IMG/VR virus record: IMGVR_UViG_3300031996_000004
Location: 5,931-69,930 of that record
DNA: 64,000 nucleotides
Direction: 5' to 3' (one strand)
Source of the DNA: a virus
Lineage: Duplodnaviria > Caudoviricetes
Part shown: in pieces, positions 23,713 through 55,375 of the stretch
Layout: every line of letters starts with the position of its first letter
How positions within the stretch are numbered: position 1 is the first letter of the stretch
Position numbers and translations under genes: made by a program
The notes under the pieces: generated by a model
Database searches by the model: none
What the model saw: the letters and a program-made list of their open reading frames with translations, nothing else
Told to the model about the DNA's origin: nothing

Positions 23713-23945
23713 CAGAGGCTCTTGCGCATCTTGGGGTTGATGTAGCTCGCCTGCGGCGTGCTCACCTTGCCCTTGGTGCGGTTCATTCTGGCGTTGGGGC
23801 GCAGGATGCCTCGCGCCACCAGCGCCGACAGGTGGCGGGTCGCCTTGGCGACCGCGTTGGGCACAGCATCGCCGGGCTGGTAGGTGGTCCCGTTCTGGAG
23901 CTTGACCTTCCTACCAGCCACGAACGACGCAGGCTTGCGGATCAT
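23712..23945 (-). CDS. Small basic protein downstream of the capsid gene
   Basis: Start MIRKPASF at 23945 overlaps the MCP stop; 77 aa. Confidence 0.6.
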   Translation of the reverse strand: MIRKPASFVAGRKVKLQNGTTYQPGDAVPNAVAKATRHLSALVARGILRPNARMNRTKGKVSTPQASYINPKMRKSL

Positions 23946-24943
23946 CAGGCGACCGCGGAGCCGACCCAAAGGCCCATGTCCGGGGACACGACCTTCATGT
24001 CGTAGGTCTGCTCGGCCTCGACGCGGTCGGAGGTGATGTGCTCCATGCGGAACTTCTTCACCTTGACGCCCTCGGAGTTGCCGCCGAGGTAGCCGGTCCA
24101 CGTGAACGTGTAGCCGGCCGAGGGGGTGAGCAGCGACGGGGACGACGGCGCGTAGGCGAACAGCACGCCCTTGGGGTCACCGATGAAGTCGTAGGTCGCG
24201 GCAGCGTCCTGGCTGCGCGCGTCCGTGGTCTCCGGGCCGGTGGCCTTGGTGGCGTAGGTGACGAAGAGCTCGTCGACGTCGAACAGCGTCGCGATGAGGT
24301 CCTCGGTCACCACACCACGCTGGGTGTACTTGATCCGGTCGATGATGTCCGGGTGGTGCTTGAGCGCCTTCATGACGTAGGCGCCCATCACGCAGACGTT
24401 CGGGGCGAACCCGGTGAGCTGGCGGAAGTCGATCATCCAGCCAGCCACGTCCTGGAGCGGGTCGGAGCCAGCGTTGTCCCACTGGAGGAACTGGTTGGCC
24501 GTGGGGCCGGTGGCCACCCCGGTCTTCTCCGTCGCCCAGACGCCCGCCTTGAAGTAGGCGTTCGTCCAGTCGATGTCCCGCTTGAGCAGGTGCTGGTTGG
24601 TCACGAACTCCGTGGCGTCGCGGTCCAGGTTGAAGTTGGAGTCCGCGTTGGCCCGCACCTGGTCGTCGATGTCCTTGTGGACGCCGTAGACGTGGCAGAA
24701 GTACTGGTCGGTGTCCTGCTTCCAGCCGACACCCGGGGTCTCGGTGGAGGGGGCCCGACGCTGCACGTCAGTGCGGCGCCAGTCGGACTTGGAGTACTTC
24801 CAGTACAGGTCGGACTGCTTGGAGACCTTGACCTTCGGGAAGACCTTGTCGGCGATGTAGGAGTCCGCCGACTGCATGTAGGCGATGCTGACATTCGTCA
24901 GTGGCACATTGACGTGCAGGTCAGCCTGAGAGGGGCTGGGCAT
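23945..24943 (-). CDS. Major capsid protein (HK97 fold, lambda gpE-like family)
   Basis: LTNVSIAY...IADKVFPKVKV...WDNAGSDPLQD...PNVCVMG...YAPSSPSLLTPSAGYTFTW; RBS gaaagga. Confidence 0.9.
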   Translation of the reverse strand: MPSPSQADLHVNVPLTNVSIAYMQSADSYIADKVFPKVKVSKQSDLYWKYSKSDWRRTDVQRRAPSTETPGVGWKQDTDQYFCHVYGVHKDIDDQVRANADSNFNLDRDATEFVTNQHLLKRDIDWTNAYFKAGVWATEKTGVATGPTANQFLQWDNAGSDPLQDVAGWMIDFRQLTGFAPNVCVMGAYVMKALKHHPDIIDRIKYTQRGVVTEDLIATLFDVDELFVTYATKATGPETTDARSQDAAATYDFIGDPKGVLFAYAPSSPSLLTPSAGYTFTWTGYLGGNSEGVKVKKFRMEHITSDRVEAEQTYDMKVVSPDMGLWVGSAVA

Positions 24944-26569: not shown

Positions 26570-27286
26570 TCAGAGCTTACGCCCGGACCGAGCACCGTCG
26601 GGGATGTTGCTGTTGCGCATCTTGCCGCGGGCGACCCGGACACGCAGCGGGGTCTTGGGAGCCACCGGAACGCGCTTGGGCGCAGCCATTCCGGCGATCA
26701 GGCCGAGGCCACGCTGGACCCCGGTGGCACCGGTCTCGGAGAAGGCCGCAGCCTTGCCGAACGGACCGGAGCGCTGGCCCTTGGGGGTGTGCCGGTAGAC
26801 CTCGAGCTTGGTGGCGTTGCGGCCACCGCCCGAGCCATGGCGCACGTGCGTCAGGGCGTTGCCGTGGCCGACGTGGCCACCGGTGGGGACCAGGGCGCGA
26901 ATCCGGGTGGCGCCGGGCACCGGCAGGGCGACCTTGTAGGCCTTGCCGAACGCCACGACCTCCTCGAAGGGGTTGACCAGGTTCTTCGACATGGCGTTCT
27001 TCCTCTGGTGGTTGCGGTGGATCAGGTAGCCAGTGGTGCCGGCGGCCGCTGCCGCGCCCGCTCCGATGGCGACGTTTCGGCCCAGATGGCGTGCTGTCGG
27101 CTTGGCGACGACCTCGCGAAAGGTCTCACGCGTGGCTGCTGAAGGGCCAGCCGAAGGACGAGTAGCCGGACGAGCAGCTGGTGCCGAGTGGCGCGCTTGC
27201 ATGTCCTCGAGGGAGCCGAAGTCGCGCTGGCTCCTGGGGACGAAGCCACCAGCCGGGCGCGGCTTGCGCCGCTTGCTCTGGGCCAT
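26570..27286 (-). CDS. Basic head-module protein of K-delimited peptide modules
   Basis: 238 aa Arg/Lys-rich; GAGAAAAAGTTGYL helix; AMSK, AFGK and PFGK motifs. Confidence 0.7.
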   Translation of the reverse strand: MAQSKRRKPRPAGGFVPRSQRDFGSLEDMQARHSAPAARPATRPSAGPSAATRETFREVVAKPTARHLGRNVAIGAGAAAAAGTTGYLIHRNHQRKNAMSKNLVNPFEEVVAFGKAYKVALPVPGATRIRALVPTGGHVGHGNALTHVRHGSGGGRNATKLEVYRHTPKGQRSGPFGKAAAFSETGATGVQRGLGLIAGMAAPKRVPVAPKTPLRVRVARGKMRNSNIPDGARSGRKL

Positions 27287-28194
27287 CAGCGGTACGTCCT
27301 TCCCCGGTTGGTGTTGCCGTAGTGGTGCAGCGCGCCTGCAGCGCCGACGGCGGCTGCGCCGCCGCCGAACAAGAGCCCGTTGCGCCGGGAGACGGCGATC
27401 GCCTTTCGGCCGATCTTGCGCTCGACAGTGACGTCCGGCTTGCCGACCTCGGTGCGCAGCTTGGACGCGCGCAGGGCCTTGGTCTCGGCCTGGATGCCTC
27501 GGAAGCCCTTGTGGCCGGCGTAGCCGCCACCGAGCGCGAGTGCGGACTCGCCCATCCCCAGCCTGCGCTGTCGACGGCCCTCGGGGTCATAGCGCCGGTA
27601 GGAGTCAGCCTTGCCGAAGGTGGGCTGCGGTTGCTGGCGGCGCATCCCGCCGGTCGCGACGAGACCGCCGACAGCGGTGCCGCCCACGGCACCGGTGATC
27701 AGCGCGTTGCGCGGCGTACTCGTCGCGGTCTTGATGCCTGAGGCGATCTTGGGCTTGACGAGCGCACCAGCCACCTTGGCGTTGAAGTCGGCCGCCTTGG
27801 CGCCGTTCTTCAGCGCCGACATGCCGATGCCCTTGCGGACGCGACGGTTGCCGTTGAACTCCCAGTTGGAGCCCGTACGACCGCCGTACTCAGGCAAGGC
27901 GCTCTCGATCGGGGCGAAGGACCTCGAGCGCATGGGGGAGATCTTCTGCCCGGAGTTGCTGCGCTCCTGCAGAGTCGTGAACTTCCGCCAGGCGCGCTGG
28001 TAGTGCTGGTGCTCGGATCGCGCACCCGCGTCGGGGTCGCGCGCATACTTCGACCTGGCCTTGGGCGCGGCAGTCTTGCGCGCTGCGCGACTGACGTCGG
28101 CGCCCCAGCCCTTGCCGATGGGTTCGAGCAGCGGGGCGTCCGAGCCGGTCACCCGGCGGCCGCGGGCAGAACCGGCGCCGTAGCGTGCTGCCAT
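27286..28194 (-). CDS. Basic head-module protein of K-delimited peptide modules
   Basis: 302 aa; PIGK and TFGK motifs; helices ALITGAVGGTAVGGLVA and LLFGGGAAAVGAAGAL. Confidence 0.7.
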   Translation of the reverse strand: MAARYGAGSARGRRVTGSDAPLLEPIGKGWGADVSRAARKTAAPKARSKYARDPDAGARSEHQHYQRAWRKFTTLQERSNSGQKISPMRSRSFAPIESALPEYGGRTGSNWEFNGNRRVRKGIGMSALKNGAKAADFNAKVAGALVKPKIASGIKTATSTPRNALITGAVGGTAVGGLVATGGMRRQQPQPTFGKADSYRRYDPEGRRQRRLGMGESALALGGGYAGHKGFRGIQAETKALRASKLRTEVGKPDVTVERKIGRKAIAVSRRNGLLFGGGAAAVGAAGALHHYGNTNRGRTYR

Positions 28195-28634
28195 CAGTAG
28201 GCTCCTGACCGGATGCGGATGTTGACGGGGTGGTAGGACGTCCGGCGGACCGGGTGCCCCTGTGCTACGAGAAGCATGCCAGCCGCGGCAGCCACCTCGG
28301 GACGAATCGAGGATGGGACGCGCCGCACGGCGTCGTCGATGGCCTTGATCTGGCGCAGGTGGCGCTCCCCGGGCGCGGTGCCGCGGGCGAGCACGCCCTG
28401 GGCGGCCTGGGCACGCTGCAGCGCCTCGAGAGCGAACTGGCTGTCCTTGGTGCGGGCCTGCTTGACCCCGCGCGCCAGCGCGGCACCCAGCATCCGAGAG
28501 CGCCCCAGCCCCCAGGCGCCCAACGCCAGCCCGGCCCCGGTCTCCACCGCGCGCACTGGGGAGGTCTGTCGGTCCCGGACGTACAGGCTCTTGGAGAAGG
28601 CGGTGTTGCGTCGGGTGTAGACCAGCTGTCCCAC
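28194..28634 (-). CDS. Basic head-module protein
   Basis: 146 aa, GTG start; AFSK motif; GAGLALGAWGL helix. Confidence 0.65.
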   Translation of the reverse strand: MGQLVYTRRNTAFSKSLYVRDRQTSPVRAVETGAGLALGAWGLGRSRMLGAALARGVKQARTKDSQFALEALQRAQAAQGVLARGTAPGERHLRQIKAIDDAVRRVPSSIRPEVAAAAGMLLVAQGHPVRRTSYHPVNIRIRSGAY

Positions 28635-28635
28635 G

Positions 28636-29817
28636 TCAGTAGCCCATCAGCGAGTCGAGGTCATGGTCCTTGCGCATCCCCTTGCCGTGGATGCTGAACC
28701 CGGTGCGGCCGCCCTTCTTGACCTCGGCCCAGGTGTCGTCGTCGTGGATCTTGAAGCCGACCCACCAACCGCGCGGGAAGTCGTGCGGCAGGCCCATCTT
28801 GGCGATCTTGTCGTCGGTGAAGACGATCGACTCGACCAGGTCGGAGACCTTGTGCGGCGCCTCACCGGCGCGACGGTGCATGTCGCCGCCGACGCGGCTC
28901 TTGTGCACGTAGTCGTAGGCGGCCTTCTCGATGTCGTCGGTGGTGATGTAGTCGCCCTGCCGGTCGATCACCGGGGAGCCATTGAGCTCGGTGACGCTGG
29001 CCCAACCGAAGGCCAGGCGCTGGTCGTCGTCGAGCTTGGAGAACTCCCCGGTCCAGGTCACGTCGACGGTGCCGTCGGCTTTGCCGTAGTAGGCGTCCTC
29101 GAGCGCGGCGCTCTTGGCGTTGCGGCGCGCGGTGTTGGCGCGCCCGACTGCTCCTGCGCCGACTGCGCCAGCGGCCAGTCCAGTGCGTCCCTCGGCCGTC
29201 GTCAGCACCCGGCCTGTGAGCTGTCCGGCGCGCTCTGCGCGGCTCTTGGGCTTGGCAGCCCGGACCACCTCGCCAGGCACGACATCGTGGCTGGCTGGCA
29301 CCAGTTCGCCCATCTGCTTGACGTGGCCGGCGACAACCTTGCCCAGCGCAGGAGTGCTGACCTTGCCGACCTTCTCCTTCTTGCGAGCGAAGGCCTGCCG
29401 GCCAGTGACCGCACTGGAGTTGATGTCACCGGCGACGTTGAGCCCCTGACCTGCGGCAATGAGCCCGGCAGCCACCTTTGCCTTGGTCGGGATGAGCTTG
29501 CCGCCGCCGACCTTGCTGCGGGCGGCCCGGATAGCGTCCTTGGTGGCCAGTACGCCCATGGTGCCGCCAAAGGCATTGGAGGCGAAGGCGGCCTGCGCCT
29601 GGCGGCGCTGTCCGCTGGCGTGCACGTCTGCCTGGTCGGGCCCGGCCTTGATGACCTCGTCCCACACCTCGTCGGCGTCGATCAGGTCGCCGTACAGGGT
29701 CTTGCAGAGCGCGACGAACTCCGGCGTCGCGCCATGACGGGCGATGGCGGAGGGCGAGGCAGTCACGTCAGACATCATCGCGGGTGGGCTCCCATCTAGT
29801 CGGCCAGACACGCTCAC
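28636..29817 (-). CDS. Prohead maturation protease, XkdF-like (S78-type serine peptidase), with long N-terminal extension
   Basis: C-terminal domain DQRLAFGWASV...DRQGDYI..DDIEKAAY...GDMH...LVES...GWWVGFKIHDDDTWAEVKKGGRTGFSIHG. GTGA overlap start at 29817 (alternative ATG at 29778). Confidence 0.85.
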   Translation of the reverse strand: MSVSGRLDGSPPAMMSDVTASPSAIARHGATPEFVALCKTLYGDLIDADEVWDEVIKAGPDQADVHASGQRRQAQAAFASNAFGGTMGVLATKDAIRAARSKVGGGKLIPTKAKVAAGLIAAGQGLNVAGDINSSAVTGRQAFARKKEKVGKVSTPALGKVVAGHVKQMGELVPASHDVVPGEVVRAAKPKSRAERAGQLTGRVLTTAEGRTGLAAGAVGAGAVGRANTARRNAKSAALEDAYYGKADGTVDVTWTGEFSKLDDDQRLAFGWASVTELNGSPVIDRQGDYITTDDIEKAAYDYVHKSRVGGDMHRRAGEAPHKVSDLVESIVFTDDKIAKMGLPHDFPRGWWVGFKIHDDDTWAEVKKGGRTGFSIHGKGMRKDHDLDSLMGY

Positions 29818-32699
29818 GACCGGTTCTGCATACGGTATCGGCGCACCGGAGCGTTCTGGAGGCGGAACTGGTGCATGACGGCGTTGATCGGGGTGGGACT
29901 GTCCGGCAGCGCGGAGAGCACGTCGGTCAGCACTCCGGTGTCGCCATGGCGGATCAGCATCTCGGTGGATCGGTACTTGCCCAGGTCGATCAGCTCGACG
30001 GGGTTGGAGAGGTCGAGGTCGTCGTCCACCTCGACCAGCGCCTGTTCCTGGATCGGGAAGCGGTTGGCGTACAGCACGTAGCCGCCGCCGTTCTCGGCGT
30101 AGTCGATGTGCAGCTGGGCGACGTCGGGGAAGGAGTCGAAGATCTGCCGGATGTGCTCGCCCATAGCGATCTCGTCGGCCTCGGTGCGCAGCGGCCCCTT
30201 GCCGGCGGGCTTGCGCTGCCAGACGTAGCCCTTGGTCGGCTCGCCCTCCCTAGAGCGGATCTCGGCGTCGACGTTGTCGCTCATGCTGACCACGGCTTCA
30301 CTGCCGTCCAGCTCTGTCTTCTTGCGCAGCAGGTGCAACGCCGGGCCGTAGATCGGGATGACGCCGGACTTGTCCGGCTCGGGCAGCTTGGACAGGATCT
30401 CTGCGAACTCCGCCCCGGTCATCAGCCGGTAGCGCCGGCGGTCGTCCAGGACCGGCATCTCCTTGCGCTGTTCCTCGGGCATCGTTGCCACAGGACTGCT
30501 GGCATGCAGGGCCGAGCGAAGCGCCGAGCGCAGCTTGGCCGGCTCTGGACGGGCGCTCAGCGATGCGCTCATCCGAGCAACCGGCGTTGCCGAACGGGTC
30601 ACTGCGCTGGGACGAGCGATGCGCATCTGCCGCTGCTGACGAGGCTGACGGGGCTGACGGGGTGCCACCGCAGGCTTCTCCTTGACCGGCTCAGGCAGCT
30701 CGACTCCAGGCAGCCGGATCGGGGCAATCTGGCTGGTGCGGGTCTCGACCTCCGAGAACCTGCCGCGGGAGTCCCGGTCGTAGCGGTCGCCGCCCATCGC
30801 CTTGCCGAAGCGGCCCGGGAAGATCTTGCCGGTGTTCTCCGTGGTCAGCAGCTCAACTTCGTCCTCGTCGACCGGCTTGAGCACGTAGCGCAGCACGATC
30901 ACCTTGTTCACCGGGTCGTAGAGCTTCAGCGGCTCGGAGCCGACCACGAAGGCCTGGTTTCGGTCGATGTGCACCTGCGGAGAGCGGAAGCCGCCCTCGA
31001 CGCCACCACGCACCTCGTCGGCAACGACGTACTCGTGCACCATCGGCAGGTTGTAGTCGCCGTACTGGTCTCGGGTAGGCACCACTGCCCAGTGCGCGCT
31101 GTCGTCGTAGTAGTCCTGCGCCACCAAGGAGTGCCGGTATGCCTCGTCCTCCAACCGTGGCACCACCTGGCCATCGGCGTTGGTGCTGACGTCGGTGGCC
31201 AGCAGCTCTCGGCGCCGACGCAGCTCGTCATCCAGCGACCCGCTGGTGAGTACGTCATCCGGACCGACCCTGGAGACCAGCGGGTCGACCACGCCGATGG
31301 AGGCGGTGTCTCCCAGCTCAGCCTTGGCCGCGGAAGCCGCCTCACGCAGAGACGCAGCAGACTGGTGGGTGTAGCGCGAGGACCGCTCACCGCGCCCAGA
31401 CGGGTCGTCGGGGTCCATCATCTGCGGACCGTCGTAGGGAATCGCGTCGATAAGCGCGTGCGCGCGCAGCAGCAGCGGCGGGTCACCGATCAGGTTGCCT
31501 TCCACCGGCACCATGGAGCGTCGAGTGGCCATGCCCTCGGGCAGGGTCAGGTGGAAGGTCAGCCACTCCCCGTTCGGGGTGTGCATCATCCCGTACTGGT
31601 TGGGCTCCTCCTTGACCTCGAGCGCCGTGCCAGAGAAGTCCTTGCTGCGCCGGACGGGTCCGGGCGTGTCCTTGGGTACCGCCTGCGAGTCGGCGTTGGC
31701 CGCCTTCAGGTGCGCCTGCGGGCTGGCCAGCACCTGAGCGAGCTTGGCCTGCAGGGCAGGACTGGCATGCAGCGACGCCGACATCGTGGCGCTCTGTTGA
31801 GCGTGCGCCTGCGGCGCGGAGCGCTGCGCTCGAGGTTGCCGCTGCTGGCGCTGGGTGCGCTGCTGGCGAGGCTTGCGCGCTACTGGTGGGGCTGCCGGCT
31901 GGTCGGCCACCTTGGGGGCGCCGCCGATGCCTAACCGCTGGCGTAACCGCTCCAGCGGCGACTGCTCCTTGACAGGCTCGGGCAGCTGGATGCCGGGGAT
32001 CTGGATGGATGAGTCGCGGCCCTCGCGCACAGGCGGCCCTGCGTGCGGCGAGGCATGCACGAAGCGGCCAGTGGTTGCATCCCGGGGGTGCTCGCGCTCC
32101 TCCCAGCCCTCCGAGGAGTCCCCCAGCTCGCGGGCGTGCCCGGTGGGCGACTTGGAGACCGTCTCCTTGATCCCGGCCGACTCCTGCTCGACGAGCTTGG
32201 AGACGTAGCCCAGCAAGGCGCGGTCAGCGGCGTCGGTCAGCACCGCAGGGTTCACTCGCGGGTCGGCGGCCAGCGAGGTGTACTTGCCGAGCTCCTTGGC
32301 CGGCACGCCGAACACCGCGCCAGCACGCTGGGCAGCCAGCGGCGGCGCGACGCCCTTGGAGACGCACGTGCGGTACAGCGACAGCGCGCTGGTCTCGGCG
32401 TCATCGAACACGTCGCGCAGCAGCAGCCCGGCGTAGGTCGGCTCGAGAGCCTTGCTCACGGTGTCCACAGCCGGGCCGGCTACCGCCGCCCGGCACCGGG
32501 CCAAGGCGTCCAGCAGGCCCATCTCGGATGGCACCGCTCCCTTGGCCACCGCCTCGCACGCGGCCGCCCCAGCTCGATGGACCGCCAGCAACGCGCTGCC
32601 CAGGTCACCAGCCGCGTCCCCGCCGGGCTCGAGCAAGGCGAGCACCACCTGGTCCGGCTCGACGGTGGCGCGCTGGGGCGCCCACCACCGCTGGGTCAC
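29814..32699 (-). CDS. Large head-module protein (961 aa) with two related modules
   Basis: Five VxK motifs at the N-terminus; two RDxxGRF motifs; duplicated LPEPVKE + Q/R-rich linker. Confidence 0.75.
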   Translation of the reverse strand: MTQRWWAPQRATVEPDQVVLALLEPGGDAAGDLGSALLAVHRAGAAACEAVAKGAVPSEMGLLDALARCRAAVAGPAVDTVSKALEPTYAGLLLRDVFDDAETSALSLYRTCVSKGVAPPLAAQRAGAVFGVPAKELGKYTSLAADPRVNPAVLTDAADRALLGYVSKLVEQESAGIKETVSKSPTGHARELGDSSEGWEEREHPRDATTGRFVHASPHAGPPVREGRDSSIQIPGIQLPEPVKEQSPLERLRQRLGIGGAPKVADQPAAPPVARKPRQQRTQRQQRQPRAQRSAPQAHAQQSATMSASLHASPALQAKLAQVLASPQAHLKAANADSQAVPKDTPGPVRRSKDFSGTALEVKEEPNQYGMMHTPNGEWLTFHLTLPEGMATRRSMVPVEGNLIGDPPLLLRAHALIDAIPYDGPQMMDPDDPSGRGERSSRYTHQSAASLREAASAAKAELGDTASIGVVDPLVSRVGPDDVLTSGSLDDELRRRRELLATDVSTNADGQVVPRLEDEAYRHSLVAQDYYDDSAHWAVVPTRDQYGDYNLPMVHEYVVADEVRGGVEGGFRSPQVHIDRNQAFVVGSEPLKLYDPVNKVIVLRYVLKPVDEDEVELLTTENTGKIFPGRFGKAMGGDRYDRDSRGRFSEVETRTSQIAPIRLPGVELPEPVKEKPAVAPRQPRQPRQQRQMRIARPSAVTRSATPVARMSASLSARPEPAKLRSALRSALHASSPVATMPEEQRKEMPVLDDRRRYRLMTGAEFAEILSKLPEPDKSGVIPIYGPALHLLRKKTELDGSEAVVSMSDNVDAEIRSREGEPTKGYVWQRKPAGKGPLRTEADEIAMGEHIRQIFDSFPDVAQLHIDYAENGGGYVLYANRFPIQEQALVEVDDDLDLSNPVELIDLGKYRSTEMLIRHGDTGVLTDVLSALPDSPTPINAVMHQFRLQNAPVRRYRMQNRS

Positions 32700-33115
32700 T
32701 GGCCGATCTCTCGGCGGGCAGGGTCGATCACGTGCCGCACGATAGCGGGAGGCTGGATCTTGGCGTCGACCTCACGCATCGCATCGAACACCTCCTGCGC
32801 CTCGGGGACCCGGTAGCCGGTGGCGTACCGGCCAGACTTGTACTTGTCGAGTATCCGGTTGATGTCGAGCATCGTCTTGGGCAACAGCAGGTCGTTGAAG
32901 GACAGGTCCTGGCCACGGTCGATCTGCTTGGCCAACTGCGGGCTCAGCGCGACCGCGGCAATGCCGAGGTCGTGTCCGGCCTGCTCGAGCTGCTTGGGCG
33001 TGGGCCAGTCGGGCATGATCTGGCCACGCTGCGCGAGCTTGCCGAGCGCCGCAGCAGCACGGTGCACGGGCTCGATGAGAGCCCGGTCGATGTAGAGGTT
33101 CGCCTGGTTCTCCAC
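32696..33115 (-). CDS. Hypothetical head-module protein
   Basis: 139 aa; its stop overlaps the next GTG. Confidence 0.6.
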   Translation of the reverse strand: MENQANLYIDRALIEPVHRAAAALGKLAQRGQIMPDWPTPKQLEQAGHDLGIAAVALSPQLAKQIDRGQDLSFNDLLLPKTMLDINRILDKYKSGRYATGYRVPEAQEVFDAMREVDAKIQPPAIVRHVIDPARREIGQ

Positions 33116-33147
33116 CGCGTCGCCCAGCGGCGACGCCGGTGGAACTG

Positions 33148-36100
33148 CTAGCTCGCCAGTGACTCGAGGTACTTGCGCACCATTGCCTTGGTCTGCGGGC
33201 TCTGCGCGCTGAACACGGGCTTCAGGCTGCCGCGGCTCAGCGACTTCCCGACCGGCTGATCCGGCCCCTGCGGGGCCTGGTCTTTTCCCGGGCCGCCAGT
33301 CTGGAGCTCCAGCGCCTGCGCTGCCTCCACGACGTCGAAGGCCTTCAGGAACGCCCAGGCACGCTGCATCTGGTGCAGCTGCGCCTTGGCGGCCGGGTCC
33401 TGGCCCTGGTTGCGGTAGTTGGTCACAGCGCGGCGCACCAGGTCGCCTTGCGAGCGCGCCTGGCTGAGCGCGGAGACAGCCTGCACGAACATCGGCTCCT
33501 GCTGCTCCATGTTCGACAGGAACTGGTTGAGCTTCTCCGGGGTGTTGAGCACGATGATGTCCGCGAACGGCTGCGGCTTGGGGTCCTCACGGTCCGGCAG
33601 CGCGTTGTCGGGGTCTGGCGCCGGCTCGGCGTAGGGGTGCGCGAGGTCGATCAGACGCATCATGTCGTCGACCGCCTGGGTCACCTGCGGCTCCTGGTGG
33701 GCCGCACCGAGCTGCTCGAGCATCCCCGGCGCAGCGTGAGCGTAGGACTCCAGCCCCTGCTTGATGGCGCGCCGGTCGTCGTCGGTGGCCTCAGTGGCCA
33801 GCCACTTGGCCAGCCCGGCCGACTTGCCGTGCTTGTTGTAGGCCCACTTCAGGTAGAGCGGGCCACCGATGTTGCGCGCCGCCTCGTTGTCGTAGCTGTC
33901 CCCGATCGGCTCGCCGAAGTCCATCGGGCCGATCATGTTCAGCGCCTTGTAGGCGCTGTCGGCCAGGGCGTCCTGGAAGCCAGGTGCAGAGGAGGCCAAG
34001 TCTGTCAGCCTGACCTCGGGCTTGGCCTGCTGGCGACCCTGCTCAGCAGTGCGCTGCACAGGCTGCTGGCCGCTCTCGCGAGCCGGCTTGCCCTGCTCGC
34101 CCTCGGCCTCCGGTTGCTCACCACGGCGTGCACCCTGGTCGAAGGGGGTCAGCCGGTCGGGCCGGACGTACCCCTTGTCGGGCCCAGCGAAGGTCGGGTG
34201 GTCGCCGCGCGGCAGGCCGCGCTGTTCGTTCCACTGCGGCAGCGGGCGCCAGTCGGCGCGCCGGATGTAGTAGGGGAACTCCTGCTTGAGCGCCTTGAGC
34301 GCGTCGGCGTAGCCCGGGCCGTCCAGCCGGTACATGCGGTAGGCCGACTCGCCCGCCTCCTGGCGGACCCGGCCCATCATCTCCCGGTGCAGGTCGCCAC
34401 GCTGAGAGGGGCTGGCGCCCCTCCAGTCCGGCAGGTCCTCCAGCCGGGCCATGGCCTCGGCCTCGATCTCCTGCTCGTCCAGACCGACGCTGGCCTCGAG
34501 CTGGCGGCGCTTGAGCTTGGCGTCGTAGTTGCGCTCGCCCTGCTCGCTGTCCCAGCCGGCTGCCTGGTAGGCCTCGCGGCGCAACCGGGACTTCTCGGCG
34601 GAGGGCAGGTCCTCGCGGACCTGCTTGCCGCTGGCGAGCACGCCGAGCAGCGCCTCGTAGCGGCCGACCATCTTGCGGGCCTTGTCGCTGTACCGCCGCC
34701 CACCGCGCAGGTTGGGGTCGAACTCGACGGTGAACACCCCGGAGTGGGAGACCACCTCGATCTGGCGGGCGCCGGACATCAGGCCGGCGTAGATGTCCTC
34801 GGTGGTCGGGCCACCGGACAGCCGGGTGCGCACGTACTGGCCGCCGCGCAGCTGGCCGAGGTTCTTCAGGTCGAAGGGCAGGTAGTGGTCGCCCTTGAAG
34901 CCCTGCGCCTGCACCACCACGTGGCCGTCGGCGTTGATGATGACGCCCTCGGACGGCGGGATCTCGTTGCTGGCGATCGAGAGCATCGCCACCTTCTCGT
35001 CGGGCAGGTTGCGCGACAGGATCGCCGCCGCGATGTCCCCGCTGGCGTACAGCTCCTGCTGGTCGCGAGTCAGGTTGCGACCGGCGTAGAAGGAGGTGAT
35101 GTGGCTGGCCGGGTCAGCCTCTCGGGCGTTGGCACGCCTGTGGATGTTTGCCTCGATGCGCTCGCGCTCCTCGCTGGCCCTGGGTGCGCTGGCCAGCGCA
35201 GCGAGCTGCTCGTTGGCGTAGCTCACCGACGAGGAGAGCTCCTCTGTGGGGCGACGCTCGGTGCCGCGGTAGCGGTAGGCGGTGCGCCGGATGCCAGGGC
35301 CGAGCACCTTCTCGGCTTCCGGGCCAAGGTCGCCGACCAGCTGGGCGAGCCCGCCGATCATGGACGCAGTGCTGCCAGGTGCGCTGACGGCGTTGAGCGC
35401 CTGCCCGGTCAGCTTCAGTCGGCGCATGCCCTGCATGTCGCCGCTGCGGTTCCACTCCCGGCCGGCCTGGTCCCAGTCACCGGGGTCAGGAGCCTGTCCG
35501 GCGAACCGGCCAAGGGCCTCCAGCGCCTGCGGGTCGGAGGTGAAGGCGGCTGCGGCGTTGAGCGCCGAGCGCTGCTTGAGCCCGTCACCGCGCCCGAGCT
35601 GACCGCGCTGGATGGAGATGCCGGACAGCGTCGCGTCGGGGTAGCGCTCCTGCTCCTCGATCAGCCGGTCTGGAGTCATCTCCCCGGCGATCATCGTGGT
35701 CTGCTCCTCGTCGGTACCGGTCACCACGAGCTTGCCGGTGGCCGGGTCGACCTCGGAGTTGCGCCAGTGCAGCGTCAGCGGGGTCTTCTCGTCGACCAGC
35801 TTGGCCCGCTGCCACTGCTGTGCGATCGCCGCACCCTGGGTGGCGTGCGCCTGCAGTCGCAGGTTCTCGTCCTTGGCCGGCGAGGGGCGCACGTTGCGCC
35901 GCGCGAACTGGCCCTTCTCGTCACGCGGGTGGCGCTGGTTGAAGATGGCCAGCGCGTTGCCGACCAGGCCCTTGGACACATAGGCGTCAATGATCGCCAG
36001 CCCCTGGGCATAGGGCAGGTCGTCCGGGACCTCCTCGCCGGACAGCGCCTTGCCGACGTGGGTACGCAGCAGCGCGGCCCGCGCCTTCTCTGCACGCTTG

Positions 36101-36267
36101 GCCATCATCACCGTGGCGGCCTTCTCGAGCACCTCACGGTGCTCGTCGATCTGGTCGCACAGGGACTCGTACAGCCCCAGGCGCACCAGCTCGATCGCCG
36201 CGCTCTCGTCGACGGCGGCGACCTTCATGACCGTGGCGAGGACGCCCTCGACCGGGACCAGACTCAT
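33148..36267 (-). CDS. Large head-module protein (1039 aa) with HPRDxxGxF motif and a degenerate JAB-like segment
   Basis: YVSKG...FNQRHPRDEKGQF; EGVIINADG...GGPTTEDI...VVSHSG; C-terminal PVGKS. Confidence 0.75.
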   Translation of the reverse strand: MSLVPVEGVLATVMKVAAVDESAAIELVRLGLYESLCDQIDEHREVLEKAATVMMAKRAEKARAALLRTHVGKALSGEEVPDDLPYAQGLAIIDAYVSKGLVGNALAIFNQRHPRDEKGQFARRNVRPSPAKDENLRLQAHATQGAAIAQQWQRAKLVDEKTPLTLHWRNSEVDPATGKLVVTGTDEEQTTMIAGEMTPDRLIEEQERYPDATLSGISIQRGQLGRGDGLKQRSALNAAAAFTSDPQALEALGRFAGQAPDPGDWDQAGREWNRSGDMQGMRRLKLTGQALNAVSAPGSTASMIGGLAQLVGDLGPEAEKVLGPGIRRTAYRYRGTERRPTEELSSSVSYANEQLAALASAPRASEERERIEANIHRRANAREADPASHITSFYAGRNLTRDQQELYASGDIAAAILSRNLPDEKVAMLSIASNEIPPSEGVIINADGHVVVQAQGFKGDHYLPFDLKNLGQLRGGQYVRTRLSGGPTTEDIYAGLMSGARQIEVVSHSGVFTVEFDPNLRGGRRYSDKARKMVGRYEALLGVLASGKQVREDLPSAEKSRLRREAYQAAGWDSEQGERNYDAKLKRRQLEASVGLDEQEIEAEAMARLEDLPDWRGASPSQRGDLHREMMGRVRQEAGESAYRMYRLDGPGYADALKALKQEFPYYIRRADWRPLPQWNEQRGLPRGDHPTFAGPDKGYVRPDRLTPFDQGARRGEQPEAEGEQGKPARESGQQPVQRTAEQGRQQAKPEVRLTDLASSAPGFQDALADSAYKALNMIGPMDFGEPIGDSYDNEAARNIGGPLYLKWAYNKHGKSAGLAKWLATEATDDDRRAIKQGLESYAHAAPGMLEQLGAAHQEPQVTQAVDDMMRLIDLAHPYAEPAPDPDNALPDREDPKPQPFADIIVLNTPEKLNQFLSNMEQQEPMFVQAVSALSQARSQGDLVRRAVTNYRNQGQDPAAKAQLHQMQRAWAFLKAFDVVEAAQALELQTGGPGKDQAPQGPDQPVGKSLSRGSLKPVFSAQSPQTKAMVRKYLESLAS

Positions 36268-36761
36268 CAGTGCCCTCCTGGGGTGTATGCCCTCATCCGC
36301 TGCAGCGCACTGGCTGCGACCCCGCCGGGGGAACTGGCGTACGAAGCGCGGCGCGAGCGTGCGTGCTCACCATAGAGCTCCGAGGCGCCACCGAACACGC
36401 CGCTGGCCAGACCAGCCGTCTCGAAGGCGCGGTGCGGGACGCGACGCAGCCCGGGCGCGCGCCGGGCCAGCAGCCCAGCGCCGGCCAGGGTAGCCCCGGC
36501 CAGCCCGACGTTGCGCCCGACCTCGGCGGCGTCCGCCCGGCGCTTCCACTTCTCGGCCTTGCGACCACCGGAGGCGATGTAGCGGGCCTCGTAGGCAGCC
36601 ATCCGCTGGTTGCGGTCCAGCGTCTTGGGCAGCGGGCCGCGGGTGTCGTAGCGCCGTGCGAGCTCGTCGGCGCGCCGGTCGCTCATGGTGGTGTCGAGCT
36701 TGGCCACCGTGGCGTCACCGCGGCGCACTGCCGAGCCGGTCATGCCCAGTCGTCCAGCCAT
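36267..36761 (-). CDS. Basic head-module protein with hydrophobic helices
   Basis: 164 aa; TVAK-LDTTMS; VGLAGATLAGAGLLA. Confidence 0.65.
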   Translation of the reverse strand: MAGRLGMTGSAVRRGDATVAKLDTTMSDRRADELARRYDTRGPLPKTLDRNQRMAAYEARYIASGGRKAEKWKRRADAAEVGRNVGLAGATLAGAGLLARRAPGLRRVPHRAFETAGLASGVFGGASELYGEHARSRRASYASSPGGVAASALQRMRAYTPGGH

Positions 36762-38776
36762 CAGCTCAGCCCTCCGCGCACCGTGGTCGTGCGGATCATC
36801 CCGCTCGGGTATCGAGTCTGACGGATGAAGCCACGTCGCATGGACGGGGCGCGCCGCATGCCGGTGGGACGCAGGAGCGCCTTGCCGACCAGCGCCTGCT
36901 CGCGAGCTCGCAGGTCGCGACGCTGCAGGTGCGCGCCCTCCAGACCGTTGAGCGCCGCTGCGCCACCGGCGATGGTGCCGGTGGCGAAGGAGGCGGTGCG
37001 CAGCTTGCCGGCCCGCGGGGTGTGCCGGACCTTGGGCAGCAGCGAGCCGCCCAGCAGCCCGGTGGCCGCGATCGAGCCGGTCGAGGTGGTCGCGGCGATG
37101 GCAGCCGCGCGACGCTTGCGCCGGATCTGCTCGAGCTCCTCGCGCCGGGACATGCCGCTGCTCTGGTCGGCCTTGGCGAACGCCTTGGAGCCACGCCGGG
37201 CGCCCTGGTTGTGCTGGCGACGGTAGCGGTCGTCCCGGCTCATGATGTGCCCGTACATGGCCTGCTGGCCGGCCTGACCGATCACCGAGCCACCGACCAG
37301 CGCGCCGACCGCGGCCGGACCCTTGTGTGCGGCGATCAGTCGCCCTGCCCGGGTAGCTGCCGCACGAGCACCGGTGGCCCTGGCAGCACCAGCCACCCGC
37401 GGCGCCCGACGCTCGAGCTGCGCCCCTGCGCGCTGGCCCAGACCGGGGCCACTCGAGGGCTTGATCCCGGCTCGAGCCTTGACGTTGGTCTTGGCCCCCT
37501 CGATCTTGTTGTTGAGCGCGTTGGCGCGCTGCTCGAAGCCTACGAACCGGTGCGCCAGGGCGGCAGCTCCCACCGCGCCGGCAGCGTTGCCGGCCAGCCC
37601 AGCGCCGGCGCCAGCGGCGTAGTTCTGCGCCGCGGTGCGGCGACGGTACGGCTCAGGGGACAGCCGGGCCGCCTGAGCCGCCTGGGTGAAGTCGCCGACC
37701 ACCGGCAGGCCGCCGGAGGCGGTCACCCGAGCACGGCGCTCGCCGCGGCTCATGGAGGCGCCCGGGTCGTCCTTGCGGATCGCGCCCTGTCCGGAGGCGA
37801 CCTCGCGGACCAGCTTGTCCTTGTCGTTCAGGCTCGAGACGTCGTAGGAGACGGCACGCAGCGTCTCGGCCGCCTTGGTGCGGCCGGTGGCCACCAGTTT
37901 GCCGGTGACCCGCTTGGCGTTGGGCAGGTGTCGGTCGATCACTGGCCGCGGCCTGGGCTTCGCCCGCCGCGGGGCGTAGGGCTCGACACGGTCGGCCACC
38001 CGGGACAGGTTGGTGGTCCAGTGCGCCCCGACCACCGCGCCAGCGGTGTTAGCCGCGGCCCGCGGGCTCATCTTGCCGACCATCTCCTGGCGCAGCGCGT
38101 GCGGGGACAGCGTGGTCTTGCCCGGGCGCCCTTCGACGACGTGGGCGCTGCTGGACGGGCGCGCCGGCTTGGCCCGCTTGCGCCGGACTCCGGTGGGAGT
38201 GACCTCGTACTGGCCGTGACTGGCCCGGTTGGTCAGCCGGGACTGCAGCGGCAGCGCGGCCGAGCCAGCGACGATGCCCACCCCGCGAGCGATCCCCGAG
38301 CGTGCCGAGCCGCCGAGCTTGGTCCGCCCCACTAGCCGGTGGGTGATCCCGCCGGCGGCCGAGCCCACCGCGGCCCCGGCCAGGTAGTTGCCGAGCACCA
38401 GCTTGGCCGGCGGCTTCTCGGCGATGGAGGCGTTGCGCTCGTGGAAGGACTCCTTGGCGCCGGCCAGTCCCTCGCCCAGGAAGGAGCGCTTGCGGTCATC
38501 GGCCTTGGACGTCGTCTCCTTGCGGCGCATCAGCCGCGAGGTGCCGACGGCGGCCGGCGGCACCGAGACCAGCCCGAGCGCGGCGGAGGCAGCCCAGCGA
38601 CCGCGTCCGGCTACCTTTCCCCGCCGCAGGTAGACCCGCTCGTGGCCGAAGGGGAACTTCGGGCGCGCCTGGCCGGCGTAGGCACGCTCGAGCCCGGAGT
38701 GCGCCAGTGCCCCACTGGCGGCCACTCCGCCCAGACCGAGCGTGGCGGTGGCGGCGTCCTGGCGGCGGTCGCTCAC
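36761..38776 (-). CDS. Basic polyprotein-like head-module protein (671 aa, about six modules)
   Basis: Modules split at TTSK, MVGK, AIRK, AFAK and LVGK; Arg-rich, most with Gly/Ala helices. Confidence 0.7.
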   Translation of the reverse strand: MSDRRQDAATATLGLGGVAASGALAHSGLERAYAGQARPKFPFGHERVYLRRGKVAGRGRWAASAALGLVSVPPAAVGTSRLMRRKETTSKADDRKRSFLGEGLAGAKESFHERNASIAEKPPAKLVLGNYLAGAAVGSAAGGITHRLVGRTKLGGSARSGIARGVGIVAGSAALPLQSRLTNRASHGQYEVTPTGVRRKRAKPARPSSSAHVVEGRPGKTTLSPHALRQEMVGKMSPRAAANTAGAVVGAHWTTNLSRVADRVEPYAPRRAKPRPRPVIDRHLPNAKRVTGKLVATGRTKAAETLRAVSYDVSSLNDKDKLVREVASGQGAIRKDDPGASMSRGERRARVTASGGLPVVGDFTQAAQAARLSPEPYRRRTAAQNYAAGAGAGLAGNAAGAVGAAALAHRFVGFEQRANALNNKIEGAKTNVKARAGIKPSSGPGLGQRAGAQLERRAPRVAGAARATGARAAATRAGRLIAAHKGPAAVGALVGGSVIGQAGQQAMYGHIMSRDDRYRRQHNQGARRGSKAFAKADQSSGMSRREELEQIRRKRRAAAIAATTSTGSIAATGLLGGSLLPKVRHTPRAGKLRTASFATGTIAGGAAALNGLEGAHLQRRDLRAREQALVGKALLRPTGMRRAPSMRRGFIRQTRYPSGMIRTTTVRGGLS

Positions 38777-39057
38777 GTGGGGTTCCTCTCGAGGTTGTAG
38801 GCCAGCGTGCGCACCACCGCGCTGGCCGGCTGCCTGGTGGCGGCCGCGTGGTGCTCGAGCATGGCGGTGAACCAGCTCGCGGACGCGCTGAACAGCACCG
38901 CCCAGGCGTCAGCCGGGCTCTGGTGCTTCTGCGCGGCGTCGGCCATGTAGCAGTTGAGCAGCAGTGCGGCGTCGCTCTCGTTGCCGCCGATCTTGGCCGT
39001 CGCGATGCCCAGCACGGTGCGGGTGGCGTCAGGCAGTAGCGCCTCGGCGGCGTTCAT
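38773..39057 (-). CDS. Hypothetical protein downstream of the portal gene
   Basis: MNAAEALLPD... start at 39057, ATGA overlap with the portal stop; 94 aa. Confidence 0.6.
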   Translation of the reverse strand: MNAAEALLPDATRTVLGIATAKIGGNESDAALLLNCYMADAAQKHQSPADAWAVLFSASASWFTAMLEHHAAATRQPASAVVRTLAYNLERNPT

Positions 39058-40751
39058 CGTCGCTGGCCACCTTGGCTGCCGCCCTGCTGCTGGCCACCGC
39101 CCTGCTGCTGGCCACCGCCCTGCTGCTGGCCGATGGCCTGGAACATCTGCTGGGCCTGGTTGAGCTGGTGGTCGCTGTCTGCGCGCTGCTCCTGGGCCTG
39201 GCCGAACTGCATCTGCTGCTGGCCCTGCTGCATCTGCTGCTGCTGCTGGGCGTACTCCAGAGTGGGCTTGCCGGCGGCGAGCTGCTGCTCGGCCGCCATG
39301 GCCTGGGCCAGCTGGGAGCGCGCGGCCAGGTAGCGGGTCTGGGTCTCGGCGAACCGGGCTGCCTCGTCCAGCCGGGCCAGCCGGCGGTTGGCCGCCTGCG
39401 CGTCCTCGCCGAGCTCGGGCAGCCCCGCGGCGTGGCGCAGGTAGCGCTCCATCTCGGTGTCCGGGCCCCAGTTGAAGCCCAGCCCCGCGGTGGCGGTCAG
39501 GAACTGGGACAGCTGGGTGAGGTCGGGGGCGTCGACGTTGCCCGGCTGAAGGGTCGGCAGCGTGGACGGCTTCCAGCCGTTGGCCGCGAACAGCCGCGGG
39601 ATGGCGTGCCGGTTGAACACCTCGGCGATGGACAGCGCCACCGCGTTCAGCGCGTCCCGGAAGATGCCGGTCTTGTCGACGTGCAGGTTGTAGGTGCCGG
39701 TGGAGCCCTGGTGGCCGACCATGATGAAGTCGGCCAGCACGGTCATCAGCTGGCGCTGCTCGTAGCGCTGGATCAGCTCGTTGGTGGAGAACTGCCGCTG
39801 CCCGCCGGAGCCCATCAGCTCGAACTTGAACATCGGCTGCTTGGTGTCCGGGTCGTAGGCGGTTGGGAAGACCAGCCCCTCCTGCTCGTTGCGCCGGATG
39901 GAGCGGACCATCTTCTTCATGGCCTCGACCATCTTGGCCTGGTCGGTGCCCTTGCCGGCGCGCAGGTACTCGCTCGGCACGCTGACCATGGGCAGACCGG
40001 CCAGGTCGCGCTCGACGCCCACGCTCTCGAACTCCTCGAGGCGCTTCTTGTAGTACCAGGGCCGGTAGGAGTTGCGCAGCAGCGAGCGCCCCTCGGGGTT
40101 GCCCTTGTGGTGGCCGAAGCGGAACAGCAGCGAGCGGTCGATCGGGATGGTGCGGGTCTTGTAGTCCGGCGGGGAGAGCTGGACCATGGCGCGCACGTCG
40201 CCGGTGTCGTCGAAGACCCAGCGCTGCAGGGTCTCCTGAGCGCGGATCGGCATCTTGCGCCAGCCGATCAGGCCGTCGCTGTGCTTGGAGCGGTGCCTGC
40301 CATCGCGCTGCCAGGGGCCCATCCGGCGCTTGTAGACGATCTCGTGCCAGGACCAGCCGTACTGCAGACAGGACAGGATCTCCATGATCGTGTCGTCCCA
40401 CGAGCTGCTCATGTCGTCCATTGACGTCTCGACCAGCTTGGCCGCGTTGGCGTCGTCGCGGCTCTTGCCGCCGGGCACCACCGGCCAGTCGATGCCGCGC
40501 AGCAACTGGGTGAAGGTGAACAGCAGCGCCCCGGTGATCGGGTCGTTGTCGCCCATCTCGCGGAAGACCTGGACGCCCTTGCGCCCCTTGAGCTGGGGCA
40601 GGAACTCCTCGTCGAGGTAGCCGGCCGAGCGCTTGAGGCCGGTGACGCCGATCTCGTCCATCCACAGCGGACCACTGGTCAGCTGCTGGACCTCGGCTAC
40701 GGCGTCCCGGTCAGCCGCCTCGGTGGGGCTGGGGTACCTGGTTCCGGCCAC
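39054..40751 (-). CDS. Portal protein (Mu gp29/DUF935-like)
   Basis: EIGVTGLK...YGWSWHEIVYKR...HHKGNPEGRSLLRNSYRPWYYKKRLEEFESVGVERDLAGLP...AEVFNRHAIPRL. Confidence 0.9.
   Translation of the reverse strand: MAGTRYPSPTEAADRDAVAEVQQLTSGPLWMDEIGVTGLKRSAGYLDEEFLPQLKGRKGVQVFREMGDNDPITGALLFTFTQLLRGIDWPVVPGGKSRDDANAAKLVETSMDDMSSSWDDTIMEILSCLQYGWSWHEIVYKRRMGPWQRDGRHRSKHSDGLIGWRKMPIRAQETLQRWVFDDTGDVRAMVQLSPPDYKTRTIPIDRSLLFRFGHHKGNPEGRSLLRNSYRPWYYKKRLEEFESVGVERDLAGLPMVSVPSEYLRAGKGTDQAKMVEAMKKMVRSIRRNEQEGLVFPTAYDPDTKQPMFKFELMGSGGQRQFSTNELIQRYEQRQLMTVLADFIMVGHQGSTGTYNLHVDKTGIFRDALNAVALSIAEVFNRHAIPRLFAANGWKPSTLPTLQPGNVDAPDLTQLSQFLTATAGLGFNWGPDTEMERYLRHAAGLPELGEDAQAANRRLARLDEAARFAETQTRYLAARSQLAQAMAAEQQLAAGKPTLEYAQQQQQMQQGQQQMQFGQAQEQRADSDHQLNQAQQMFQAIGQQQGGGQQQGGGQQQGGSQGGQRR
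39081..39131 (-). repeat. 18-bp tandem repeat encoding QQQGGG in the portal C-terminus
   Basis: gccctgctgctggccacc x2 plus a partial copy. Confidence 0.8.
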
Positions 40752-40920: not shown

Positions 40921-41223
40921 TCAGAGTGCTGGTCCACCGACCGGCTCCGCTGGCTCGGGCTGGGGCGTGGGCGGCAGCGGAGTGGGGATCACCGAGCCGT
41001 CGATCTTGCGCCGCATCACGTAGGAGACCACGGTCTGGACCACGGTCTTGGCCAGTGAGAAGCCGACAACGGCCCACTGGATGTCGCCCCAGCCGCCGGC
41101 AGTGGCGAACACGGTGACCAGCACCGTGCCGACGGCGACGGCCAGGTCGATTGCCAGCCCCTGGATGAAGGTGCGCAGCGCTCGGTTCTTGGCATCCGCG
41201 GTGAGCAGATCGGTGCTGGTCAT
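40921..41223 (-). CDS. Holin
   Basis: RALRTFIQG...two TM segments...SLAKT; directly downstream of the endolysin. Confidence 0.8.
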   Translation of the reverse strand: MTSTDLLTADAKNRALRTFIQGLAIDLAVAVGTVLVTVFATAGGWGDIQWAVVGFSLAKTVVQTVVSYVMRRKIDGSVIPTPLPPTPQPEPAEPVGGPAL

Positions 41224-42071
41224 GGCTTTCCGTTCAGGTAGCGCTGCAGGAGGGTGATGGTGATCGGTCCGGGGATGCCGTCCGGCTTGGCGCCGACCTT
41301 GAGCTGGATGCCGGCCCAGGTCTTGGGGCCAAGCACGCCATCGGGCTTAGCCCCGACCCAGCGCTGGATGGTGGTGACCGTGACCGGACCCCAGATGCCA
41401 TCCACAACGACCCGCAGGAACTGCTGGGTGCGACTACGGGTGGCCCGGCCGAAGATGCCGTCGACCTTGAGCCAGATCTTGGTTGGCACCTTCTTGACCG
41501 GCGGCAGCACCACCACGGGCGGCTTGTAGCCGACCAGCCGGTTGGCCTGGGCCACCATGTCGGCCAGCGGGTAGTAGGGGCCGGGGTCGGTGTGCCCACC
41601 GACCGGGCCGAAGACCCGGGTCGCCTGGGCATGGGTGATCACCCCGGCGTAGCTGCGCGAGAGCAGCTGGGCGTCGGTCATCGTGCGCAGCGGGATCTGG
41701 TAGGCCTGGTTCCACTCGGCGCACACCGTCGCGGTGTTGGCGATGGTGGCCTGGGAGAACGGGTCGGACCAGTCCGCGGCGCTCTGGGAGGCCCGGCCGG
41801 CCTGCTCGACGTGCAGCCCGTCGGCGTTGACGTACGGTGCGCCCCAGGCGGTGTCCGCGTCGTCGACGTAGGTGCAGATCGAGTCGGCGTCGGTGCCCTT
41901 GTGCGCGCTGCCGCCGGCAGCCGGGTTCTGGAACCAATAGCCCATCCCCTCGGCCGCGGTGGGCAGCTCCTGGGTCTCACCGTCGTGCACGACGATGTAC
42001 CGGATCACCCCGGCGATGCGCCCGGCGTGGTAGTTCTTCGGGCTAGCGGGGATCGAGGTTCTGGTGGTCAT
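41220..42071 (-). CDS. Endolysin: N-acetylmuramoyl-L-alanine amidase (Amidase_2) plus peptidoglycan-binding repeats
   Basis: YIVVHDGE...GSAH...AWGAP..N..GLHVEQAG...THAQ...GGHTDPG; four C-terminal DGxxGxxT repeats; start MTTRTS at 42071. Confidence 0.9.
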   Translation of the reverse strand: MTTRTSIPASPKNYHAGRIAGVIRYIVVHDGETQELPTAAEGMGYWFQNPAAGGSAHKGTDADSICTYVDDADTAWGAPYVNADGLHVEQAGRASQSAADWSDPFSQATIANTATVCAEWNQAYQIPLRTMTDAQLLSRSYAGVITHAQATRVFGPVGGHTDPGPYYPLADMVAQANRLVGYKPPVVVLPPVKKVPTKIWLKVDGIFGRATRSRTQQFLRVVVDGIWGPVTVTTIQRWVGAKPDGVLGPKTWAGIQLKVGAKPDGIPGPITITLLQRYLNGKP

Positions 42072-42462
42072 GGGTGCCCTCCGCGGCAAGTTCGTGGTCT
42101 GAGGATGCGACCCGCAGGTGCCGTACGTCGGCAGGCTCGCCGGTGGTGGCCAGGGTCTTGATCCAGCGGATCGCCCGGATGAAGACAATCGTGTCGAACA
42201 GGATCGTAGTGAAGATCCGGGCTGTGGCCACCCCGTTGTCGTGCGGAGACTGGATGCCGACCCGGAAGATGTTCCAGCTCGAGAGCAGGTACAGCAGGCA
42301 GATGCCGATCGGCAGAGCGGCGAAGTCGACCAGCTCGAACCAGGTGAAGGCTGCGCCCCGACGGCGCCGGGCCTTGACGGCCGATGGAGTCCAGGTGAAG
42401 ACGTAGAAGACCGACGCCAGTGTCCCCAGCAGTGTCAGCGAGGCGATGGTCATCTCATACAC
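42043..42462 (-). CDS. Membrane protein in the lysis cassette
   Basis: About three hydrophobic segments; 139 aa. Confidence 0.55.
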   Translation of the reverse strand: MYEMTIASLTLLGTLASVFYVFTWTPSAVKARRRRGAAFTWFELVDFAALPIGICLLYLLSSWNIFRVGIQSPHDNGVATARIFTTILFDTIVFIRAIRWIKTLATTGEPADVRHLRVASSDHELAAEGTHDHQNLDPR

Positions 42463-55341: not shown

Positions 55342-55375
55342 TCGTTAGGCCGTGTTCCGGACGGAGGAGGGCACA

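Follow-up and report, generated by a model that had tools for sequence, protein, structure and literature searches.

Three copies of a short linear motif lie in two large proteins encoded in the head module of a tailed phage (Duplodnaviria; Caudoviricetes), of which we analyzed a window of 64,000 nucleotides (bases 5931–69930 of the 69,930 bp virus record IMGVR_UViG_3300031996_000004; 64%–73% G+C). The motif has the core R-(D/G)-x-x(-x)-G-(R/K/Q)-(F/W), usually reads H-P-R-D-x-x-G-R-F, and has a tryptophan or phenylalanine 4–5 residues upstream. We found that it is a widespread module-boundary element of head-associated multi-domain phage proteins, and it probably marks protein modules that are carried in the phage head. 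The best explanation, in which we place about as much belief as doubt, is that it acts as a docking or exit header of head-carried modules and follows a putative protease site.

All three copies are encoded on the minus strand. Copy 1 (HPRDATTGRF) comprises residues 204–213 of protein P0001 (32061–32090), copy 2 (YDRDSRGRF) comprises residues 640–648 of the same protein (30756–30782), and copy 3 (HPRDEKGQF) comprises residues 113–121 of protein P0002 (35905–35931). The initial annotation had reported three copies in these proteins, and we confirmed their positions, with the correction that for copy 2 it identified the right site but gave an interval (30756–30779) that misses the first residue. 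The core R-x3-4-G-(R/K/Q)-(F/W) is present in every copy, and the copies share little protein sequence outside it. H-P before the arginine and the aromatic residue (W/F) 4–5 positions upstream are found in copies 1 and 3 only; in copy 2, Y-D stands for H-P and the upstream aromatic is absent, and the site aligns to F-E-x-x-H-P-R-D in seven of nine homologues. The strict pattern occurs twice in the six frames of the window, compared with 0.45 ± 0.52 times in shuffled sequences (maximum 2), and one loose core-only match, at chance level, was found in the 5.9 kb of the record outside the window. Because the number of matches in the window is within chance, it proves nothing for the motif by itself, and the case rests on conservation in homologues.

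We aligned P0001 with eight homologues (alignment A1, nine sequences) and P0002 with its own family (alignment A2, 56 sequences with 25%–53% identity; more than 240 homologues of about 1000 amino acids [aa] were found, and none has a Pfam domain). Both P0001 sites are retained across the eight homologues, and W199, R206, G211, F213, R642, and G646 are invariant (9/9). At copy 2, H640 and P641 are present in 7/9 sequences, which thus read HPRD, and the copy in the window is therefore a degenerate version. In A2, the residues R115, G119, R/Q/K120, and F/W121 are each present in 56/56 sequences, the histidine in 34, the proline in 38, and an aromatic residue (F/W/Y) at position 109 in 46. As H and P vary and the arginine, glycine, basic, and aromatic positions do not, the true core is R-x3-4-G-(R/K/Q)-(F/W). 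A related phage contig (L121; 32%–37% identity) keeps the gene order of the head module, and within that module its only motif copies are at the same three positions. The motif is thus conserved in homologues of both proteins, as a functional role had been taken to require.

A conserved lysine precedes each copy: K183 (TVSK), K633 (RFGK), and K99 (YVSK) lie 20, 6, and 13 residues ahead of the H or Y of copies 1, 2, and 3, respectively. K183 and K633 are each present in 8/9 sequences of A1, and K99 is present in 54/56 sequences of A2, with V, I, or F two residues before it (position 97) in 51/56. K99 is one of only two lysines that are at least 90% conserved among the 1039 columns of A2. Across homologues the motif is always downstream of the conserved lysine, with a spacer from lysine to motif arginine of 6–27 residues, and the earlier proposal that it lies shortly after a putative lysine cleavage site agrees with this conserved upstream Phi-x-K.

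The motif is far from confined to this lineage. When viral contigs were scanned with a DNA pattern for HPRDxxGRF, at least 132 matches in at least 120 loci were found. Among the matches listed, which fall into 52 open reading frame (ORF) clusters unrelated by BLAST, about 111 are in open frames of at least 150 aa, and 41 of these 111 lie within 40 residues of the open-frame start; W or F is found at −5 in 71/132, and E or P is found at −3 in 67 of the 81 that were selected for an upstream aromatic, although position −3 was part of neither the search pattern nor the filter. Also among the matches listed, 22 of the 69 internal ones have Phi-x-K at −6 to −12, compared with 10.0 ± 2.9 in controls drawn at random from positions within those proteins (maximum 20 of 1000). 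The scan yielded one clear false positive, a 69 bp tandem DNA repeat that translates as HPRDxxGRF (L097:6255–6560 and 8655–8750).

We then built a profile (A4) from 68 motif windows. In a search of 1.84 billion representatives, it matched 1781 protein clusters at E ≤ 1e-3 and 229 at E ≤ 1e-10, with the consensus Phi-x-(K/A/G)-(D/E)-(W/F)-D-E-x-x-H-P-R-D-x-x-G-(R/K/Q)-(F/W). The flanks are acidic (D/E at −6, −4, −3, and +4), and position −7 is K in 24% of 511 copies and A or G in many proteins. The best 150 of the 1781 matches mostly have 2–19 copies each, spaced by a median of 265 aa, and the copies inside one protein are nearly identical. A large family of proteins of 1500–2100 aa opens with MAGIGDSWGTREELLHPRDSHGRF (L007, L037, L045, L058, L099, and about 40 other viral loci); no Pfam domain was found in L011, the one member scanned. 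Segments of 39–49 aa around the motif matched no model in Pfam, PHROGs, or NCBIfam, and a tblastn search of a 41 aa segment against phages gave only noise. Among Protein Data Bank sequences the best profile match was weak (E = 1.3; 9rku chain Af, residues 84–99): the sequence PRDASGRFA followed by a Gly-rich stretch in a baseplate-complex protein of phage 7-7-1, which, if true, would be the sole copy in a solved structure.

With a stricter pattern, 185,579 species genomes gave 34 loci, about 22 of which have the extended motif; the hosts are Firmicutes, Proteobacteria, Planctomycetes, Treponema, Actinomycetes, Rickettsiales, and one archaeal metagenome-assembled genome (MAG). Among 93 large ORFs around 20 of these cellular-genome loci, seven match portal families and three match TerL, and the 25 most frequent families around the loci include no conjugation family. 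A tblastn search of the motif-bearing ADP-ribosyltransferase (ART) protein P0140 against plasmids found no match, so a conjugative-element context gains no evidence. In the contig from the archaeal MAG ELA465 (L152:1947–7667), four motif copies lie in one open frame that is 1907 aa or longer, and Haloarcula phage records match the motif-bearing protein P0131; the motif may therefore reach archaeal tailed viruses.

Motif-bearing proteins carry ADPrib_exo_Tox, ART-PolyVal, DRAT, Zeta_toxin, GNAT, RelA_SpoT, and NUDIX domains, as well as PBECR1, LPD3, Phage_Mu_F, portal, and S78 protease domains, and one carries an HMG box; ADP-ribosyltransferases are the commonest. Gly-rich linkers and enzymes come after the motif in most of these proteins. 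P0141 (7334 aa) has 18–19 copies and at least 9 tandem ADP-ribosyltransferase domains, P0168 (5313 aa) has 17 copies and at least 6, and in both proteins each such domain is set off by the motif. The initial annotation had placed HPRDxxGxF-like motifs ahead of variable domains, and this order was seen in MuF-, portal-, and effector-type phage proteins. Because the motif is either near a native N terminus or just after a conserved basic site, it is more likely the header of the module that follows it than the tail of the module that precedes it. A header on each module fits best if each freed module is held or exported separately, which favors a docking or exit signal.

In AlphaFold (AF2) models of P0001 and P0002, all three copies are in stretches of low predicted local distance difference test score (pLDDT) between folded parts. 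P0001 consists of a helical N-terminal domain (helices at residues 17–174, pLDDT about 85) and two units, each comprising the motif, a disordered basic linker, and a folded domain. The N-terminal domain is its best-conserved part (majority fraction 0.75, vs. 0.43–0.48 for folded domains A and B), and K83 and K115 within it are invariant in A1. Copy 1 is in the disordered stretch 176–369 and copy 2 is in the disordered stretch 625–746. P0002 (mean pLDDT 82.6) has helices at 9–112, including a long helical hairpin (43–112), followed by the motif (pLDDT 49–55) and a well-predicted body. In every copy, the two residues that DSSP joins by a β-bridge are exactly the invariant R and F (R206/F213, R642/F648, and R115/F121 for copies 1–3), which suggests a small predicted hairpin in a flexible tether. 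Linker 1 is made up of a Pro-rich part, the short helix LxRLRxxLGIG, and a basic tract rich in Arg and Gln, and its composition is the same in homologues. A Pro-rich stretch and then an (R/Q)n tract follow each motif of P0001; the LxRLRxxLGxG helix follows copy 1, and it follows copy 2 only in the homologue P0007. The repetition of the cassette suggests that a whole delivery unit was duplicated within the protein.

The initial annotation had assumed that large effector domains lie behind the motif in this phage, and here our results did not bear it out: neither P0001 nor P0002 has a family match in Pfam, PHROGs, or NCBIfam. Domain A showed weak matches to ADP-ribosyltransferase folds (Z 5–6.5; 100–128 residues aligned; root-mean-square deviation 3–4 Å), among them HopU1, C3larvin, and the ART-like domain of lethal factor. 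Comparison by hhalign of domains A and B and the N-terminal domain with an ART alignment made from motif-bearing proteins gave probabilities of at most 1%, so domain A is not called an ART. Fold searches with the P0002 model returned only generic helical-hairpin matches. No Phage_Mu_F (PF04233) sequence match was found in either protein, and MuF was not listed in fold searches of these long multi-domain models. A tblastn search of both proteins against 50,697 GenBank phage records found no match, and an ESM Atlas search gave no usable one.

Four known systems are instructive. Mullaney and Black (1996, cited in PMC10052503) reportedly described a capsid targeting sequence of the T4 internal proteins and Alt. 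The T4 targeting peptide lies near the N terminus of injected proteins inside the head, beside a prohead-protease site, and the window motif is likewise a short near-N-terminal peptide by a putative prohead-protease site. The T4 sequence, however, is upstream of the cut, removed, and lineage specific, whereas the window motif follows the putative cut, so that the mature protein would keep it, and is found in many phyla. We rejected a T4-type capsid targeting sequence because in every homologue the motif is 6–27 residues downstream of the conserved lysine.

In phage SPN3US, N-terminal head-protein propeptides of 111–254 residues are removed by multiple cuts (PMC10052503), and such propeptides, in SPN3US and phiKZ-like phages, parallel the 99- and 183-residue helical N-terminal domains of P0002 and P0001 with their several conserved Phi-x-K sites. 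In contrast, the protease of those phages belongs to a different family and cleaves at a motif of its own, no conserved header is reported downstream of the cut there, and cleavage was shown there by mass spectrometry (PMC10052503), whereas here it is putative. The analogy with T4 and SPN3US suggests the following sequence of events. P0001 and P0002 would enter the prohead by means of their conserved helical N-terminal domains, and the XkdF-type prohead protease would cut after the conserved Phi-x-K sites, which would fragment the N-terminal domains and separate the two units of P0001. Each released unit would start 6–27 residues before the motif, a placement that is conserved, and would present it as a predicted R-to-F β-hairpin knob on a flexible tether. 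The knob may then dock onto a conserved partner, for which the portal or exit channel is the most likely place, and the module would thereby be held in the head and be able to leave with the DNA.

The other two systems are polyvalent proteins and MuF polymorphic toxins. Polyvalent proteins are giant multi-domain phage proteins that are encoded beside packaging genes and thought to be delivered with DNA; their processing is proposed to occur via built-in zincin peptidase domains (Iyer et al., 2017; PMC5512222). Many motif-bearing proteins are of the same kind, with ART-PolyVal, LPD3, PBECR1, MuF, Zeta, and RelA_SpoT domains, but sequence searches found no recognizable polyvalent-protein domain in P0001 or P0002. 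Polyvalent proteins have at least two recognizable effector or enzyme domains; P0001 has two folded domains with no family match, and one of them has the weak ART-like match (Z 5–6.5) described above. In MuF polymorphic toxins, variable toxin domains come after a MuF domain that associates with the head (Jamet et al., 2017; PMC5576092). P0131 resembles them in that its motif lies between MuF and toxin domains; the window proteins, with no MuF match, do not. Neither paper mentions an HPR-type motif or linker, and in the part of the literature searched we found nothing on HPR-type motif strings or on HPRD together with prophage and capsid.

Several observations weigh against a docking or exit header. 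The motif is in just two of the approximately nine genes from portal to capsid, so it is not a general packaging tag in this phage, and elsewhere a few proteins have it near the C terminus. Motif-bearing phages differ in portal family (PF06074, PF04860, and PF05133) and in protease family (XkdF here, S78 in other contigs). Cargo that is fused to a portal or MuF domain is already tethered to the head and needs no signal whose sole role is targeting. The tripeptide Phi-x-K is common, and the P0001 and P0002 domains are at most candidate effectors. Finally, the much better conserved helical N-terminal domains upstream of the lysine sites are at least as good candidates for capsid targeting.

The main rival reading, which we consider rather unlikely, is that the motif is a primed-side substrate-recognition element of the protease at domain boundaries and has no role after cleavage. 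It would account for the single copy at each domain boundary of multi-domain proteins, the enrichment of K or Phi-x-K directly upstream, and the conserved lysine ahead of all three window sites. Yet many copies are at native N termini and have nothing upstream to remove, the distance from lysine to motif varies from 6 to 27 residues, residue −7 is often A or G instead of K, and the motif stays constant while the protease family varies (XkdF here, S78 elsewhere). The proposal of the initial annotation that the motif would co-occur with XkdF proteases held within this lineage, where shared descent explains it. Elsewhere, one motif-bearing protein has an HK97-type S78 domain, and one S78 match was found among five other motif-bearing viral contigs, so the link is not XkdF specific; these five also gave one sub-threshold XkdF match, and because they are only 30%–64% complete they settle little.

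Less probable still is a nucleic-acid anchor, in which the arginine and aromatic residues, together with the Arg/Gln tracts of P0001, would tie modules to the packaged DNA. The invariance of the arginine, the basic residue, and the aromatic, the (R/Q)n tracts after both copies in P0001 and its homologues, and the HMG box of one motif-bearing protein are consistent with it, but the flanks of the motif are acidic (at the four positions given above), and what follows it in most proteins is a Gly-rich linker and an enzyme, not a basic tract. We give a similarly low standing to a neutral junction, a structural linker or recombination hot spot for domain shuffling that binds nothing. The motif is always at module boundaries, and near-identical copies within one protein could arise in this way; however, R, G, and F/W are invariant at the protein level across families at 25% identity, this invariance spans hosts from Treponema to Streptomyces and the archaeal MAG, and the window copies share little protein sequence beyond the core. 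Chance likeness in Arg- and Gly-rich coding sequence of high G+C content would be compatible with the window count, in which two matches (0.45 expected) equal the shuffle maximum, but it is refuted, to the point of being negligible, by the homologue alignments: columns are invariant in 56 and 9 sequences, the same three positions are occupied in a phage at 32%–37% identity, and 1781 clusters match the profile.

The genes for P0001 and P0002 are between the portal gene and the prohead protease and major capsid genes, which is a virion and packaging neighborhood, and all structural genes are on the minus strand. The coordinates are collected in the table below.

Features of the head module and of P0001 and P0002, in window coordinates
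Feature	Position	Strand	Basis or remark
Endolysin	41220–42188	−	
Portal gene, 565 aa, start of head module	39054–40751	−	Pfam Portal_Mu PF06074, E = 1.2e-30
671 aa ORF, then 164 aa ORF	between portal and P0002	−	
P0002, 1039 aa, holds copy 3	33148–36267	−	translation
P0002 residues 1–99, helical N-terminal (pro-)domain ending YVSK (K99)	35971–36267	−	
Copy 3 with upstream aromatic, F109–F121 (FNQRHPRDEKGQF)	35905–35943	−	
139 aa ORF	between P0002 and P0001	−	
P0001, 961 aa, holds copies 1 and 2	29814–32699	−	translation
P0001 residues 1–183, conserved N-terminal helical domain; four V-S-K sites (K83, K115, K168, K183)	32151–32699	−	
Copy 1 with upstream aromatic, W199–F213 (WEEREHPRDATTGRF)	32061–32105	−	
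Linker 1, P0001 residues 214–369	31593–32060	−	pLDDT <50
Folded domain A, P0001 residues 370–625	30825–31592	−	pLDDT about 80
K633 (RFGK) and degenerate copy 2, Y640–F648	30756–30803	−	
Linker 2, P0001 residues 649–746, Pro-rich and Arg/Gln-rich, disordered	30462–30755	−	pLDDT <50
Folded domain B, about P0001 residues 747–961	29817–30461	−	pLDDT about 80; no family match
Prohead protease gene, 393 aa	28636–29817	−	Pfam Peptidase_S78_2 PF14550, E = 4.7e-20, residues 258–381
Four more ORFs and cement-like protein	between protease and major capsid gene	−	
Major capsid protein	23945–24943	−	

The XkdF-type domain of the protease comprises its last ~130 residues (about 28675–29046), and 512 homologues of the protein were found. 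The window ORF from the first GTG encodes 393 aa and the database record has 380, so the true start is probably ~13 codons downstream of that GTG. Directly ahead of the XkdF domain, 60 homologues conserve an F-x-K (F in 60/60, K in 88%). The motif is absent from the protease in 120 homologues; four look-alikes were rejected, as they had neither H-P nor the upstream aromatic, and two of them lie inside a conserved block near the C terminus. The 671 aa ORF (36761–38776, minus strand) is Arg-rich (87 R) and has no family match, and the same is true of several smaller head-module ORFs (26570–28634, minus strand), which are likewise Arg-rich; these ORFs are weakly similar to one another and to the protease protein in its N-terminal half, and none of them contains the motif. 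On the plus strand, the phage encodes a DnaB-type helicase (55352–56650) and a DnaE-type Pol III α subunit (60467–63109) with PHP, DNA_pol3_alpha, finger, and HHH domains.

A bolder form of the docking or exit header, which we regard as doubtful though somewhat likelier than any rival reading above, is that tailed phages of bacteria, and possibly those of archaea, use the motif as a near-universal signal, which a conserved feature of the portal or exit channel would recognize in the manner of a secretion signal. Were this true, the head would retain any module with an N-terminal motif until that module was threaded out together with the DNA, and the motif would be a sequence key to injected phage proteins in any genome. 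Proteins that are injected from the phage head with the DNA include many anti-defense and host-takeover enzymes and are hard to recognize by sequence. If the motif marks such modules, its occurrence in at least 1781 protein clusters and many phyla would allow candidate injected proteins to be listed along with their domain boundaries, and it would provide a concrete peptide with which to study how cargo is held in and released from the head. In this phage, it singles out two large uncharacterized proteins as probable processed head cargo.

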